64,000 bases of DNA from Spirochaetia bacterium (GCA_963677925.2 CAXXYH010000004.1:1568001-1632000), one strand, 5' to 3'. Shown: positions 50,700 to 62,508, counted from the first letter of the stretch. The notes: generated by a model not told the origin, from the letters alone. Made by a program: numbers and translations.

Positions 50700-51776
50700 T
50701 CATAGATCCGGATTTGGAACCATAAAGTCTCTGATTACTGCCAGGAGATCAGCATAGCCTGCGAGAAAGCCACGCAGTGTCCGGGCTGTTGCTCCGAAGG
50801 TTTCAAATTCTTCATGTGTAAGACCATCCGGTTCATATGCTTTGATAAAATCAGGAAATTTCTTTTTAAGCTCATCAATAATTGCAGGATCAACAGGGTC
50901 ATCCATTCTTGGTTTAACCTCAACATCTGACTGGTTGAACTGTACCTGCCATTTGTATGGAATAGTAAGAACTACGTCACCGCCGATGAATTCACTCCAC
51001 TGAAGGTGGTTTCTGTATGCTGCAGCAAGAAGTCTTGTTCGGAATCCCTTCTCGTTGTAATACTTGTAGGCATTCTTGAAAACGGCAACACCTGCCCAGT
51101 CAAGGACACCGGGAGTAACCGCAATGTTTTCTTTTGCTGCAATTACTTTCAGCCAGTCGTCAATCCGGCCTACCATTATGGTGCAGACAGGAGTCATTTT
51201 AGATACATCCTTGCCTTCGGCTTCCCGTCTCTTAAGTCCTCTTTCAACGGCTTCTGCAACTGCCACAGCCTGCGGACATGAAAAACTTACTGTTGCATTG
51301 ATATTAACACCGGCATATGTTGCTTCTTCAATGGCTTTCACTCCGGCTGCGGTTACAGGCATTTTTACCATCATGTTTTCAGCAAGTGTGTTGAAGCCGA
51401 TGGCCTGATCAGCCATTTTTTTCCAGTCACGATAGTACTGTGCATTGGTCTGTATGCTGATGCGTCCTTTCATGCCGTCATATTTCTTGAAGACAGGCAT
51501 AAGAAGTTCTGCGCCTTTAACAGCCATTTCTTCGTTAAGTTTCCATGCGATATCGATCTCAGTAGCTTCAGGCATTTCCTTAACAAGCTCTTTGATCCTG
51601 TCTTTCCAAAGATGCATCTCCTTTTTCAGCACATTTCCAACAATAACGGGGTTTGTTGTAGCTCCTGTTGCACCGTTTTCGATTGAATATTTAAGCTCTT
51701 CGATAGAACATGAATCATTCCATACATCGGTTGCTGTTGTTTCAACAGTCTCGTGAAGCGGACTTTTGTATCCCAT
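50700..51776 (-). CDS. transaldolase-family protein, non-canonical active site
   Basis: WNDS, TTNP, VKMP (Schiff-base Lys), INAT, VGRIDD; Gln at the TalB Glu96 position. Confidence 0.88.
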   Translation of the reverse strand: MGYKSPLHETVETTATDVWNDSCSIEELKYSIENGATGATTNPVIVGNVLKKEMHLWKDRIKELVKEMPEATEIDIAWKLNEEMAVKGAELLMPVFKKYDGMKGRISIQTNAQYYRDWKKMADQAIGFNTLAENMMVKMPVTAAGVKAIEEATYAGVNINATVSFSCPQAVAVAEAVERGLKRREAEGKDVSKMTPVCTIMVGRIDDWLKVIAAKENIAVTPGVLDWAGVAVFKNAYKYYNEKGFRTRLLAAAYRNHLQWSEFIGGDVVLTIPYKWQVQFNQSDVEVKPRMDDPVDPAIIDELKKKFPDFIKAYEPDGLTHEEFETFGATARTLRGFLAGYADLLAVIRDFMVPNPDL

Positions 51777-51815
51777 AAATGTCTCCTTCTGGATTTGTTT
51801 GGTATCTATTTAGAT

Positions 51816-51856
51816 AGTTTAGAACTTTATTTTTGATTTGTCAATTGTCAGACAAT
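51816..51856 (-). promoter_or_regulatory. promoter of transaldolase gene with adjacent palindrome
   Basis: TTGACA-N17-TAAACT on - strand; ATTGTCAGACAAT (51844-51856) abuts the -35. Confidence 0.5.
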
Positions 51857-51923
51857 ATGAAATTGTGATTTTATTACAATATGAGAATATTCATCGAATC
51901 TGTTCAAATAGATAAAAAATTAC

Positions 51924-51937
51924 TGCAAACGTTTGTA
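51924..51937. promoter_or_regulatory. LacI-type operator
   Basis: TGCAAACGTTTGTA, central AACGTT. Confidence 0.6.
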
Positions 51938-58709: not shown

Positions 58710-59723
58710 ATGAATAATAAAATTAAACTTGGAATTATCGGCGCAGGCCGTATAGCAAAGGTTCATGCCGAGAGTATTACATCGGCCATTGCAGCAGCTG
58801 AGATTAAAACTGTTGCCGATCCGTATATAAACGAAGAAACTGAAAAATGGTTCAGGGAAAAAGGCATACCCAATGTTACAAAGAATGCTGCAGATATCTT
58901 TAATGACAGTGAAATCGATGCTGTACTGATCTGTTCTTCAACAGATACACATGCGGAATTTACCAGAAAGGCGGCAGAATGCGGTAAGCATATCTTCTGT
59001 GAAAAGCCTCTTGATCTTGATATCGAACGAATCAAGGAAACCCTGAAAATTGTTGAAGCCGCAGGCGTTAAGTTCCAGATTGGTTTTAACAGACGCTTCG
59101 ATCACAACTTCAAGGCTGTAAGGGATGCAGTTGAAGCAGGTTCCGTGGGTGAACCTCATATTGTGAGAATAACCTCAAGAGACCCGGCGCCGCCTGACCC
59201 CAGATACATTGCTGTTTCCGGCGGTATATTCATGGATATGACTATTCATGATTTTGATATGGTCAGGTACTTAAGCGGCAGCGAAGTTGATGAGATTTAT
59301 GTTCAGGGTGCAGTTCTGGTAGATCCTGAAATTGGAAAGGCAGGCGATATTGATACCGCAGTGATTTCGATGAAACTTCAGAACGGAGCAATTGCAGTAA
59401 TCGACAACTCAAGAAAGGCTGCCTATGGATATGATCAGAGAGCAGAGGTTTTCGGAAGCAAGGGTGCTGTTGAAACCTCAAATGATGCTCCAAGCACTAT
59501 GGTTATGAGCAACGAAGCAGGTGTAACTGCTGAAAAACCACTGTACTTCTTTCTTGAAAGATACATGGAGTCATTCTCACGTGAAGTAAGAATGTTTATT
59601 GATTCAGTAAAGAACGGAACCGAAACACCGGTTGGGGCTCTTGATGCCCTGCGTCCTGTTCAGATAGCAAAGGCTGCACGTGAATCCCTTGATACCGGCA
59701 AGCCTGTAAAAGTTAACTACTAG
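58710..59723 (+). CDS. iolG: myo-inositol 2-dehydrogenase
   Basis: GAGRI, CEKP, GFNRRFD, SRDP, DMTIHDFD, YGYDQRAE, FFLERY. Confidence 0.92.
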   Translation: MNNKIKLGIIGAGRIAKVHAESITSAIAAAEIKTVADPYINEETEKWFREKGIPNVTKNAADIFNDSEIDAVLICSSTDTHAEFTRKAAECGKHIFCEKPLDLDIERIKETLKIVEAAGVKFQIGFNRRFDHNFKAVRDAVEAGSVGEPHIVRITSRDPAPPDPRYIAVSGGIFMDMTIHDFDMVRYLSGSEVDEIYVQGAVLVDPEIGKAGDIDTAVISMKLQNGAIAVIDNSRKAAYGYDQRAEVFGSKGAVETSNDAPSTMVMSNEAGVTAEKPLYFFLERYMESFSREVRMFIDSVKNGTETPVGALDALRPVQIAKAARESLDTGKPVKVNY

Positions 59724-59744
59724 TTTTCCAATAAGGGAGTTTAT

Positions 59745-60557
59745 ATGATTGCAAGAAAAGAAAAACCTTTTACGAAAGGCTATAATTCAATAACCGAGCA
59801 GCATGGGAAACATCCTGAAATGCTGCTTGATTTCGGAATACTGATGCTTGAGAGCGGTGAGGTTCATGAAGATTCTCAGAATAAGGAAAGAGCCTGGCTG
59901 CTTATTAAGGGTGAACTTTCCTTTGAATGGGAAGGTAAAACCGCCTCCGGTAAACGGATTTCATGCTTTGATGAAAATCCGGTAGTTCTTCATGTTCCGG
60001 CAGGTGTTGCTGTTAAAATTACCGCTGCGGCAGACTGTGAGATTGCAGTTGAAGCCTGCGATAATTCAAACAGTTTTAATGCCAGGTTTTACGCTCAGGA
60101 AGATATCAGGTGCGATATTTTCGGTGCCGGTACTCTTAACGAGGCTTCAACCAGGACTGTACGGACTGTATTTGACGGTGAAATTGAGCCGGCTTCAAAT
60201 ATGGTAATGGGCGAGGTTATAAATCATCCGGGAAAGTGGTCGAGCTTTCCTCCCCATGATCATCCGCATCCTGAAATTTATCATTACCGCTTTTTCCCGA
60301 AGCAGGGCTTCGGTGTTTCACTTCTTGAAGAGGATGCCTATGTGGTCAAGGACGGAGATTCAAGTCTGATTTTTCCTGACAAGACACATTCCCAGGTTGC
60401 TTCAGCCGGTTACGCAATGTACTACATCTGGATGATTGCCCACCTTCCCGGCGATAAATGGCTTCCCACAACAAGGTTCTTCAGAAAGGACCATGAATGG
60501 CTTAAGGAAAAGGATGCCAAAATCTGGCCTGAACTTAAGTATTCGGAAGCTGAATAG
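59745..60557 (+). CDS. iolB: 5-deoxy-glucuronate isomerase
   Basis: [25 protein letters not shown]. Confidence 0.9.
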
Positions 60558-60573
60558 GAGAACGGGAGAGAAA

Positions 60574-62508
60574 ATGAAAACAGTAAGATTAACAGTAGCC
60601 CAGGCACTTGTCCGTTTCCTCGATAACCAGTGGATTGAGTTCGATGGAAAGCAGAATAAGATGTTCAGAGGGGTTTTTACAATTTTCGGTCACGGAAACG
60701 TAGTCGGTCTTGGACAGGCGCTGGAAGAGGATGCCGGCGAACTCATCGTTCACCAGGGAAAGAATGAGCAGGGTATGGGACATGCCGCCATGGGATTTGC
60801 CAAGCAGATGCTCAGGAAGCAGATCTATGTCTGTACCTCATCTGTCGGACCCGGAGCAGCCAATATGGTTACAGCAGCCGCCAATGCCACGGCAAACAGA
60901 ATTCCTGTACTTTTTCTGCCGGGCGATACCTATGCTACAAGACAGCCGGATCCTGTTCTGCAGCAGGTTGAGAGATTCAGCGACTATACGGTAACCGTAA
61001 ACGATTCATTCAAGGCTGTAAGCCAGTACTGGGACAGGGTAAACCGTCCTGAACAGCTTATGACCGCTATGATAAATGCGGTGAGAGTGCTTACCGATCC
61101 TGCTGACACCGGCGCAGTAACTGTTGCGCTTCCGCAGGATGTTGAGGGAGAGGCATATGATTACCCTGAATCATTTTTTGATAAGCGTGTACATAGAATA
61201 GAAAGAAGACCGCCGACTGATGCTATGATAGCCGATGCGGTTAAGGCGGTTAAGGCTGCCAAAAAGCCGATGCTGATTTGCGGAGGGGGTGTACGCTACT
61301 CTGAGGCTGCCGAAGAATTCAGGAAATTTGCCGAGGAATTCAATATTCCCTTCGGTGAAACCCAGGCAGGCAAGTCCGCAATTGTATGGGATCATGAACT
61401 GAATCTCGGCGGTGTCGGAACAACCGGCAACCTCGCTGCAAATCTTATTGCTCCGGAAGCCGATCTTGTAATCGGAGTGGGTACAAGATATACCGACTTC
61501 ACAACAGCATCTAAATGGCTCTATCAGAATGAAGATGTCAAGTTTGTTAATATAAACGTAGCGCCTTTTGACAGCTACAAGATGGACGCTGTCAGGGTAA
61601 CTGCCGATGCGGGTGCAGCATTATCAAAGCTGACTGATGCACTTAAGGCTGATGGTTATAAGAGCAGCTGGAAGAACGAGATTGCAGACGCCCGGGCCAA
61701 ATGGGCAGCTGAACTGCAGAGGCTCTATGAAATTGATTTTACAGGTGAAGGCTTTGTTCCCGAGGTTGATGGTCAGCGTGATGAGATTCTTCCTGAATTC
61801 TACAGTCAGTTCGGTGCTGCACTCACTCAGACCAAGGTTTTAGGATTGCTTGATGCCAACCTTGCCGATGATTCAATTGTTGTAGGTGCTGCAGGGTCAC
61901 TCCCTGGAGATCTCCAGAGGGTCTGGCGGGCTAAAAGGCCTGAAACATACCATATGGAATACGGTTTTTCATGTATGGGTTATGAAATAAATGCTGCACT
62001 TGGTGTTAAGCTGGCCTGTCCTGAACAGGAAGTATATGCACTGGTCGGAGACGGTTCCTACATGATGCTTCATTCCGAACTGGTTACCGCCGTTCAGGAA
62101 GGCCGGAAGATAAATGTAATTCTTCTGGATAATGCCTCCTTCGGCTGTATCAATAATCTTCAGATGGAGCACGGTCAGGGCAGCTTCGGTACTGAAACCA
62201 GGCATAGAAATCCTGAAACCGGTAAACTTGACGGACCTTTTATCAATATCGATTATGCAATGAGCGCGGCAGCCTACGGCTGTAAAACCTATACTGCCAA
62301 AACAGAGGACGAACTTGTTGCCGCATTGGAAGATGCGAAGAAGCAGACTGTATCAACTCTAATCGACATCAAGGTTCTTCCCAAAACCATGACTCACGGT
62401 TATGAGGCTTTCTGGAGGGTCGGCAGTGCTGAAGTTGCTAAGAATCCCGAGATCGTCAACCTGAACAGGAATATGAAGGAAGAGCTTAAGAAAGCCAGAA
62501 AGTATTAA
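60574..62508 (+). CDS. iolD: 3D-(3,5/4)-trihydroxycyclohexane-1,2-dione acylhydrolase (TPP)
   Basis: [45 protein letters not shown] 60574. Confidence 0.96.

Follow-up and report, generated by a model that had tools for sequence, protein, structure and literature searches.

A transaldolase-family gene beside an inositol operon in a Spirochaetia bacterium and its candidate role in the cleavage of 5-dehydro-2-deoxy-D-gluconate

In soils, sediments, and guts, the myo-inositol of phytate and lipids serves as a major source of carbon. Here, an inositol (iol) operon is described in a 64,000-nucleotide stretch of DNA (hereafter, the window) from a Spirochaetia bacterium (GCA_963677925.2, CAXXYH010000004.1:1568001-1632000), together with a divergently oriented gene, TAL1, that encodes an enzyme of the transaldolase/fructose-6-phosphate aldolase (FSA) superfamily. 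The operon would convert myo-inositol to unphosphorylated 5-dehydro-2-deoxy-D-gluconate (DKG), the substrate of the kinase IolC in the canonical pathway. It is proposed, tentatively and with a probability of roughly 0.45, that TAL1 is a DKG transaldolase that closes the inositol pathway by transfer to glyceraldehyde 3-phosphate.

Organization of the inositol locus

An open reading frame (ORF) listing and profile scans of the window revealed a block of same-direction genes at approximately 52169-62508. The block begins with an ATP-binding cassette (ABC) importer, composed of a periplasmic sugar-binding protein (52169..53110, +), whose ORF opens at 52127 and whose likely start is the ATG at 52169 after AAGGAGG, an ATPase with two nucleotide-binding domains (53180..54700, +), and a permease (54712..55713, +), the last two assigned by profile scan. 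These genes are followed by a first copy of the inositol 2-dehydrogenase IolG (55725..56738, +; TIGR04380, 376.7 bits, cut-off 355), a LacI-family regulator, also assigned by profile scan, that is likely the repressor of the locus (56739..57764, +), the myo-inosose-2 dehydratase IolE (57799..58689, +; TIGR04379, 409.4 bits, cut-off 290), a second IolG copy (58710..59723, +; 472.6 bits), an IolB-type isomerase (59745..60557, +), and the ring-opening hydrolase IolD (60574..62508, +; 963.9 bits, cut-off 715). The IolD ORF opens with a TTG at 60436, but the ATG at 60574, after GGGAGAG, is the likelier start. An EamA-family transporter directly 3′ of IolD (62572..63534, +) is of uncertain membership in this unit. 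A preliminary description of the locus had listed uptake genes, two iolG, iolE, iolD, and iolB, and all of them were recovered. In the case of iolB, the assignment stands at the family level (KduI/IolB family, PF04962, 183.8 bits), but the protein is of a divergent kind, 'IolB2', that falls under the IolB equivalog cut-off (TIGR04378, 102.8 bits against 205). The same divergent type also precedes IolD in other loci carrying TAL1 relatives. The composition profile of the window presented nothing unusual.

TAL1 (50700..51776, −; 358 aa; PF00923, 148.6 bits) lies opposite the iol operon and, as had been recognized before, is transcribed away from the intergenic region that they share. The distance between the TAL1 start and the likely start of the binding protein is 393 bases. 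TAL1 is preceded by a sigma-70-like promoter match (51816..51844, −; 10/12, a consensus match only) and is followed, directly 3′ of its stop codon, by a terminator-like hairpin with a 9-bp stem, seven G-C pairs, and a T run (50653..50675, −). The presence of its own promoter-like site and of this strong terminator-like hairpin indicates that TAL1 would constitute a single-gene unit. For the iol operon, a sigma-70-like consensus match (52080..52108, +; 11/12) was found, and the LacI-type palindrome TGACAACGTTTGCA (52118..52131, no strand; consensus match) is placed 10 bases 3′ of its −10 hexamer, a predicted site at which a bound repressor would block initiation. Another LacI-type consensus palindrome, TGCAAACGTTTGTA (51924..51937, no strand), is found in the intergenic region between TAL1 and the operon, and a third one of the same form precedes a second IolB-IolD pair of this genome. 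The motif was also tried as a regulon finder, in which a degenerate pattern derived from the three iol-region palindromes returned one extra match, at the start of a GGDEF gene; about one would be expected by chance (an estimate), and this use was dropped.

Fold and active site of TAL1

TAL1 scores well over the gathering score of PF00923 (27 bits) and falls under every NCBIfam transaldolase cut-off (NF002881, 116.9 bits against 367; TIGR00876, 86.1 against 233.75; TIGR00874, 64.5 against 396.2) and under that of the FSA model (TIGR00875, 43.9 against 245.95). It shares 20-27% identity with solved transaldolases, and its structure predicted with AlphaFold2 (AF2) is a confident triosephosphate isomerase (TIM)-barrel transaldolase fold (predicted local distance difference test, pLDDT, 94.7), with Foldseek template modelling (TM) scores of 0.80-0.82 against the transaldolases of N. 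gonorrhoeae and C. glutamicum. At least 8000 relatives were scored in a word-index search, a whole-library search returned 345 cluster representatives at E ≤ 1e-30, and a scan of one genome per species placed the tightly conserved TAL1 subfamily (TAL) in at least 587 species.

An alignment with E. coli TalB, which has the same fold and 27% identity, revealed seven identical active-site positions: Lys138 (TalB K132), Asp21 (D17), Asn42 (N35), Asn160 (N154), Thr162 (T156), Arg204 (R181), and Arg255 (R228). The Schiff-base lysine, Lys138, is located on strand 4 and is invariant in 24/24 subfamily members. In four other positions TAL1 differs from TalB, with Glu96 replaced by Gln109, Phe178 by Met201, Ser226 by Ala253, and Asp98 by Asn111. 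All these aligned residues, whether kept or changed, are invariant in the 24 subfamily members, which are 66-88% identical to TAL1. Titles of Protein Data Bank (PDB) entries name TalB D17, N35, E96, T156, S176, F178, and R181 as studied active-site residues; Glu96 is taken here to be the catalytic acid/base of TalB, and Tyr131 that of FSA, with Gln59 and Tyr131 as the presumed residue numbering of E. coli FsaA. TAL1 resembles FsaA in the glutamine at the TalB Glu96 position, and FsaA uses an unphosphorylated dihydroxyacetone unit. FsaA is nevertheless a short protein (220 residues) with 25% identity to TAL1, and its catalytic tyrosine corresponds to Met201. Judged from these alignments, TAL1 keeps the Schiff-base chemistry and the anion-binding pocket and fits neither known acid/base arrangement.

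The position of Gln109, equivalent to FSA Gln59 and unlike TalB Glu96, brings forward another possible activity. TAL1 could be an FSA-type DKG aldolase, releasing malonate semialdehyde and free dihydroxyacetone, the latter to be phosphorylated by a Dak kinase or by glycerol kinase. A Dak1-type kinase is encoded in the genome, and glpK lies two genes from TAL1; three relatives (loci L131, L132, and L134) preserve the order glpK-cls-TAL. This activity is considered unlikely, since the FSA catalytic tyrosine is Met201 in TAL1, cls stands between glpK and TAL1 with glpK on the opposite strand, and neither Dak nor GlpK was among the neighbors in the 80 related loci described below (GlpK in 0/80). 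Moreover, Dak1 was found in only one of five other TAL-type iol genomes, whose completeness is unknown, and this rarity lends mild support to transfer over the release of free dihydroxyacetone.

A paralogue, TAL2, is encoded elsewhere in the genome (C4:274759-275787, − strand; locus L111 7760-8788). It is 38% identical to TAL1, presents the same Gln/Lys/Arg pattern, and adjoins a gluconate-5-dehydrogenase-like short-chain dehydrogenase/reductase (SDR; 308.6 bits, cut-off 369), a GntR regulator, and a major facilitator superfamily (MFS) transporter. Its substrate may be a different 5-keto sugar acid.

Absence of IolC and linkage of TAL to inositol genes

The assembly of this genome comprises 5.04 Mb and is 99.63% complete. 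No IolC over the cut-off was found in it (best 127.8 bits against 300), and the eleven matches to the IolC model were all generic PfkB kinases away from the iol loci. Likewise, no IolA-type methylmalonate-semialdehyde dehydrogenase (MMSDH) over the cut-off was found in the genome (best 323.5 bits against 448.5). Two class II aldolases are present, neither of them near iol genes: one, at C4:2453476, is the presumed glycolytic enzyme, and the other (C3:9200-10204) shares an operon with an FGGY-kinase gene, a gene resembling mannitol-1-phosphate dehydrogenase, and a dedicated LacI regulator. None of the PfkB kinase, class II aldolase, and aldehyde dehydrogenase matches from these whole-genome searches lies inside the window, in agreement with the earlier remark that iolC, iolJ, and iolA are missing there. 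The same remark held when the rest of the genome was considered for iolC and, as regards aldolases near iol genes, for iolJ, the only spare class II aldolase being the one in the FGGY-kinase operon.

A second inositol cluster was identified at C4:1046887-1054851 (locus L110 5887-13851). Its IolB-type isomerase and IolD (932.9 bits) diverge from a group of genes for a LacI regulator, an IolG-like dehydrogenase of the D-chiro-inositol type (427 bits, cut-off 540), and three xylose-isomerase-like barrels, and ROK regulators and an EamA transporter are encoded nearby. No kinase or aldolase was found in this cluster. Thus, both IolD clusters lead to DKG, and the genome has no canonical way onward.

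The genomic neighborhood of TAL was evaluated in the best 80 loci among the at least 587 relatives, with one genome per species. These loci span Spirochaetota, Planctomycetota, Chloroflexota, Acidobacteriota, Actinomycetota, Bacillota, Fusobacteriota, Verrucomicrobiota, Thermodesulfobacteriota, and Myxococcota, and 11 of them are shorter than 8 kb. A tblastn search with the window proteins found IolD within 10 kb of TAL in 35/80 loci, IolG in 33, IolB in 31, and IolE in 29, so that an association of this subfamily with iol clusters, until then only to be expected, was in fact observed. An unbiased clustering of the ORFs in the same loci recovered IolD (31 loci), LacI (29), IolG (26), IolE (26), IolB of two types (23 and 12), ABC importer parts (13-19), IolA-type MMSDH (18), SDR (13), a SauS-like coenzyme A (CoA)-acylating aldehyde dehydrogenase (ALDH; 12), an MmdA-like carboxyltransferase (7), IolN (6), and aldehyde:ferredoxin oxidoreductase (6). 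In this clustering, PfkB kinases stood beside TAL in two small groups only (4 and 2 loci), and class II aldolase was not among the recurrent neighbors.

Gene orders joining TAL to iol genes recur in Chloroflexota, Acidobacteriota, Bacillota, and Spirochaetota. The order LacI-IolB-TAL-IolD-IolG-IolE-IolG was found in four Anaerolineae, IolB-TAL-IolD-IolA-IolE in two Acidobacteriota, and IolB-IolD-TAL-IolE-IolG in a Petroclostridium chromosome; IolB-IolD-TAL-IolA-IolE-IolG was also seen, and TAL-IolB-IolA occurs in the two Planctomycetota that were the nearest rows to the window in a quick tree. An IolA-type or SauS-like ALDH lies at most two genes from TAL in 24/76 loci. Taken together, the recurrent orders and the proximity of these dehydrogenases place TAL repeatedly between a DKG-making gene and a semialdehyde-consuming gene. 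The quick tree was built from the two paralogues of this genome and 70 of the 80 loci, selected for having a TAL ORF of at least 330 aa in the main ORF cluster. In this tree, the IolD context label was clustered (12 changes against 21.8 when shuffled) yet interleaved, without a clean iol-specific clade. Some Acidobacteriota clusters containing TAL and iol genes (loci L054, L080, L087, and L092) also harbor a TonB-type outer-membrane barrel, two extra GFO-family oxidoreductases, and an FG-GAP/ASPIC protein, a content that suggests the uptake of a larger inositol-containing substrate.

The distribution of TAL was compared with those of IolC, IolD, and IolN, the ring-opening hydrolase of the Thermotoga-type inositol route. 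An IolC over the cut-off occurred in 3/35 genomes with TAL next to IolD. A second phylum was sampled through 400 genomes of the phylum of locus L027, minus the seed genome and one unpublished genome. Its 77 IolD genomes included 24 with IolC, 13 with TAL, none with both, and 40 with neither, a non-overlap of IolC and TAL with a Fisher p of 0.007 that is overstated, as kin are not independent. TAL and IolD were on one contig within 16 kb in 9 of those 13 genomes, and TAL was present in 13/77 IolD-positive against 22/322 IolD-negative genomes (p = 0.011). In a sample of 400 genomes from the phylum of the window, 15 other genomes carried IolD; nine of them have IolC and three have TAL (49-52% identical), two of these three having IolC as well. 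Among 40 relatives of the same genus, family, or class, 16 carried a strong TAL (580 bits or more), six of which have IolD and ten IolN, with one or both in 14/16; the two with neither were G844 (81% complete) and G863. No TAL match was found in 20 relatives, of which none has IolD and two have IolN, and four relatives were ambiguous (G849, G867, G406, and G860). IolD or IolN, therefore, accompanied TAL in 14/16 relatives against 2/20 of those without it (p = 4e-6).

These distributions bear on the possibility that the canonical steps are performed by non-orthologous, unlinked genes, such as the FGGY kinase and class II aldolase at C3:7701-10204, with TAL1 being a pentose-phosphate transaldolase found beside the iol operon by chance. 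A kinase and aldolase pair does exist in the genome, a pentose-phosphate role may need filling given that neither of only two PF00923 genes is over an equivalog cut-off, and TAL is syntenic with cls-glpK in the family even where iol genes are not adjacent. However, half of the 40 relatives have no TAL, and its presence tracks IolD or IolN, unlike that of a housekeeping enzyme; only 35/400 second-phylum genomes carry the subfamily. Furthermore, the FGGY kinase and aldolase share their operon with a mannitol-1-phosphate-dehydrogenase-like gene and a LacI regulator of its own, and no iol-type palindrome was found there. A chance placement of TAL1 is thus judged improbable.

A candidate DKG transaldolase and its metabolic setting

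The kinase-free, transaldolase-dependent reading of the locus given in the preliminary description is supported, as far as sequence comparisons reach. In the proposed route, the importer would take up myo-inositol, and IolG, IolE, IolD, and the IolB-type isomerase would convert it to unphosphorylated DKG. Written from its keto end, DKG is HOCH2-CO-CHOH-CHOH-CH2-COO−, and a derivation by hand from Fischer projections suggests that its C3 and C4, read from the same end, have the D-threo configuration of fructose. Lys138 of TAL1 would form a Schiff base with the C5 keto group of DKG, and the C3-C4 bond would be broken in a retro-aldol cleavage, which would release malonate semialdehyde, the same product as that of IolJ, and leave the three-carbon dihydroxyacetone unit on the lysine. 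This unit would most likely be passed to glyceraldehyde 3-phosphate to yield fructose 6-phosphate, as in sulfofructose transaldolase. Arg204 and Arg255 could serve to bind first the carboxylate and afterwards the phosphate of the incoming glyceraldehyde 3-phosphate. In this manner, TAL1 alone would do the work of the kinase IolC and the aldolase IolJ.

The locus shares with the canonical pathway of Bacillus subtilis and Salmonella (IolG, IolE, IolD, IolB, IolC, IolJ, and IolA) the enzymes IolG (here in two copies), IolE, IolD, and an IolB-family isomerase, which a single operon combines with an importer and a repressor, and both DKG as intermediate and malonate semialdehyde as product should be common to the two. 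Unlike that pathway, this genome has no IolC or IolA-type MMSDH over the cut-offs and no aldolase near the iol genes, a Schiff-base enzyme of transaldolase fold standing in their place, and malonate semialdehyde would probably proceed via malonyl-CoA and a Na+-pumping decarboxylase. The logic of the proposed route is shared with the sulfo-TAL pathway, in which sulfofructose transaldolase (SftT/SqvA) acts on an unphosphorylated fructose-like ketose with a distal anionic group, replaces a kinase and an aldolase, and yields fructose 6-phosphate and a three-carbon aldehyde (reviewed in PMC9594981). TAL1 is not a member of that family: its match to BmSF-TAL (8bc3) spans about 70 residues and scores only 28.5 bits (E = 9.5e-6), BmSF-TAL is of a short type of approximately 220 residues whereas TAL1 is of the long type, and the distal group is a sulfonate in sulfofructose and a carboxylate on a deoxy chain in DKG.

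The genome also encodes a Thermotoga-type IolN (C4:950966-951889; 477 bits, cut-off 245), in a row of genes (C4:948036-952946) that includes an aldehyde:ferredoxin-oxidoreductase-like gene, an SDR, and a Zn-dehydrogenase. With IolD and IolN both present, it has the two known inositol ring-opening chemistries. IolN is otherwise rare, being found in 9/401 second-phylum genomes and, among 14 controls, only in Thermotoga. The inositol route of Thermotoga maritima (IolG, IolM, IolN, and IolO, in NCBIfam names) continues via tagaturonate to 2-keto-3-deoxygluconate without any transaldolase. Some TAL operons, however, contain IolN (537 bits), IolM-like, and IolO-like genes. In five Anaerolineae loci (L022, L039, L045, L058, and L093), the operon comprises a GntR regulator, IolN, a Zn-dehydrogenase, an ABC importer, an IolO-like barrel, TAL, and an acylating ALDH, and a tartronate-semialdehyde reductase over the cut-off was present in L045, the one locus scored (369 bits against 340.75). 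Operons of the L045 type possibly represent a transaldolase ending of the Thermotoga-type route, and IolN-type operons with tartronate-semialdehyde reductase would fit a parallel reaction on a 5-keto-hexonate; this branch is less secure, since the known Thermotoga intermediates have a stereochemistry unsuited to a D-threo-specific enzyme.

Alternatively, TAL1 itself might act on the 5-keto-hexonate of the IolN route, and DKG would be handled by unlinked enzymes or excreted. The IolN of this genome, its occurrence in 10/16 TAL-bearing relatives, and the five operons, with the reductase scored in L045, argue for such a role. Against it, TAL1 adjoins an IolD-type cluster instead of IolN, whose locus is 670 kb away, TAL is found between IolB and IolD in other phyla, and, by the same hand derivation, the D-threo arrangement on which transaldolases act is present in DKG but not in 5-keto-L-gluconate or D-tagaturonate. 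A function of TAL1 restricted to the IolN route is, therefore, regarded as improbable. As a separate matter, IolN was tried as an explanation for TAL genomes without IolD; it held in the class of this bacterium and failed in the second phylum (one TAL-bearing genome), where the TAL contexts without IolD were SDR-SDR-TAL, GntR-TAL-ALDH, and TAL-IolA.

Several observations count against TAL1 being a DKG transaldolase. First, Glu96 of TalB corresponds to Gln and the FSA tyrosine to Met, and ordinary transaldolase chemistry is, therefore, not to be assumed. Second, no other, canonical transaldolase accompanies the two PF00923 genes of the genome, both of which score below every transaldolase equivalog cut-off, and a pentose-phosphate role for TAL1 or TAL2 is conceivable. 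Third, the predicted TAL1 promoter lies clear of the palindrome at 51924. Fourth, IolD genomes with neither IolC nor TAL are common, including the 40/77 of the second phylum and 4/15 in the phylum of the window (G285, G382, G210, and G399), the first two of which are 99-100% complete. The absence of IolC alone, then, does not point to TAL, and at least one further way of finishing the IolD route must exist. Conversely, of the 22/322 IolD-negative second-phylum genomes with TAL, only one has IolN. Finally, TAL and IolC coexist in 5/51 TAL and IolD genomes examined (35 + 13 + 3). A single array of G320 contains a class-II-aldolase-like (IolJ-like) gene, IolC, IolB, TAL, IolA, an importer, IolD, IolE, and IolG; G328, a congener of G320, carries two clusters on different contigs, one of the TAL type and one canonical; in G003 and G005, IolC and TAL share a cluster that has no aldolase nearby; and G001 has IolC elsewhere in the genome. 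Such coexistence, which may reflect redundant or transitional arrangements, means that TAL is not only a replacement. The supposed mutual exclusivity of TAL and iolC/iolJ thus survives as a tendency, with IolC in only 3/35 and 0/13 genomes, and not as an absolute rule, as G320, G003, G005, and G328 demonstrate.

Candidate genes for the fate of both products were identified. In the closest relative (locus L019, 71% TAL identity), TAL, a SauS-like ALDH (523 bits), an MmdA-like carboxyltransferase (724 bits), an importer, IolG, LacI, and IolB are arranged in one direction. The SauS-like CoA-acylating ALDH of this genome is 54% identical to that of L019 (553.6 bits, cut-off 600) and unlinked to the window. 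An operon for a Na+-translocating biotin decarboxylase, with alpha, biotin-carrier, and beta subunits, is located 3 kb away from it. The degenerate pattern returned no iol-type palindrome at this locus. The whole region (C3:356589-366280; locus L122 4590-14280) comprises a class-III aminotransferase, the SauS-like ALDH, an NCS2 nucleobase permease, and the MmdA-type decarboxylase operon. The locus would provide a route from malonate semialdehyde to malonyl-CoA, through the ALDH, and to acetyl-CoA, through the Na+-pumping decarboxylase, probably in common with beta-alanine or pyrimidine breakdown. A pyrophosphate (PPi)-dependent phosphofructokinase is also present (379 bits, cut-off 273) and could handle fructose 6-phosphate, in which case no ATP need be spent. 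The earlier suggestion that the route skips the ATP-consuming IolC step is, thus, compatible with the gene content, but the saving holds only if the PPi-dependent enzyme does handle fructose 6-phosphate. More doubtful is the broader proposition that a single, highly conserved keto-acid transaldolase family, present in ten or more phyla and at least 587 species, performs the common last C-C cleavage of the IolD and IolN routes, giving fructose 6-phosphate and a three-carbon aldehyde-acid, and operates in anaerobes such as this spirochaete with a CoA-acylating ALDH, a Na+-pumping malonyl-CoA decarboxylase, and a PPi-dependent phosphofructokinase. If true, inositol would be fermented without any ATP being consumed ahead of glycolysis, and a sodium gradient would be obtained in addition.

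No paper linking a transaldolase with iol genes, DKG, or malonate semialdehyde was found in the full-text literature, subscription-only papers and supplements being outside its reach, and the route put forward in the preliminary description as apparently new has, within that scope, no published account. In PMC9430895, inositol clusters are defined by iolB, iolC, iolD, and iolE, and a missing core gene is put down to incompleteness; PMC13311982 concerns a gut bacterium without iolJ, for which a class II aldolase, and no transaldolase, is proposed. If the DKG transaldolase is real, many bacteria would have been wrongly scored as non-users or as having incomplete clusters, since surveys such as PMC9430895 count iolC among the required core genes; Chloroflexota, Acidobacteriota, Spirochaetota, Planctomycetota, and some Bacillota would be among the groups concerned. 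DKG would also be the second known non-phosphate donor for the transaldolase fold, after sulfofructose, and TAL1 would exemplify how an active site is remodelled in nature, from Glu to Gln and from Phe to Met, and would offer a one-enzyme route from a sugar acid to fructose 6-phosphate and malonate semialdehyde, a precursor of 3-hydroxypropionate.

Two further regions of this bacterium deserve mention. The PPi-dependent phosphofructokinase gene is placed near a second Na+-decarboxylase operon (C3:1241033-1255804; locus L123) with the malonate transporter MadM and a family-III CoA-transferase. The locus resembles a malonate-fermentation module, and three cyclic di-GMP turnover genes are also found there. 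Within the window, a surface lipoprotein with PARCEL repeats, a Listeria/Mycoplasma-type repeat family, is encoded at 46147-47463 (−), upstream of glpK.

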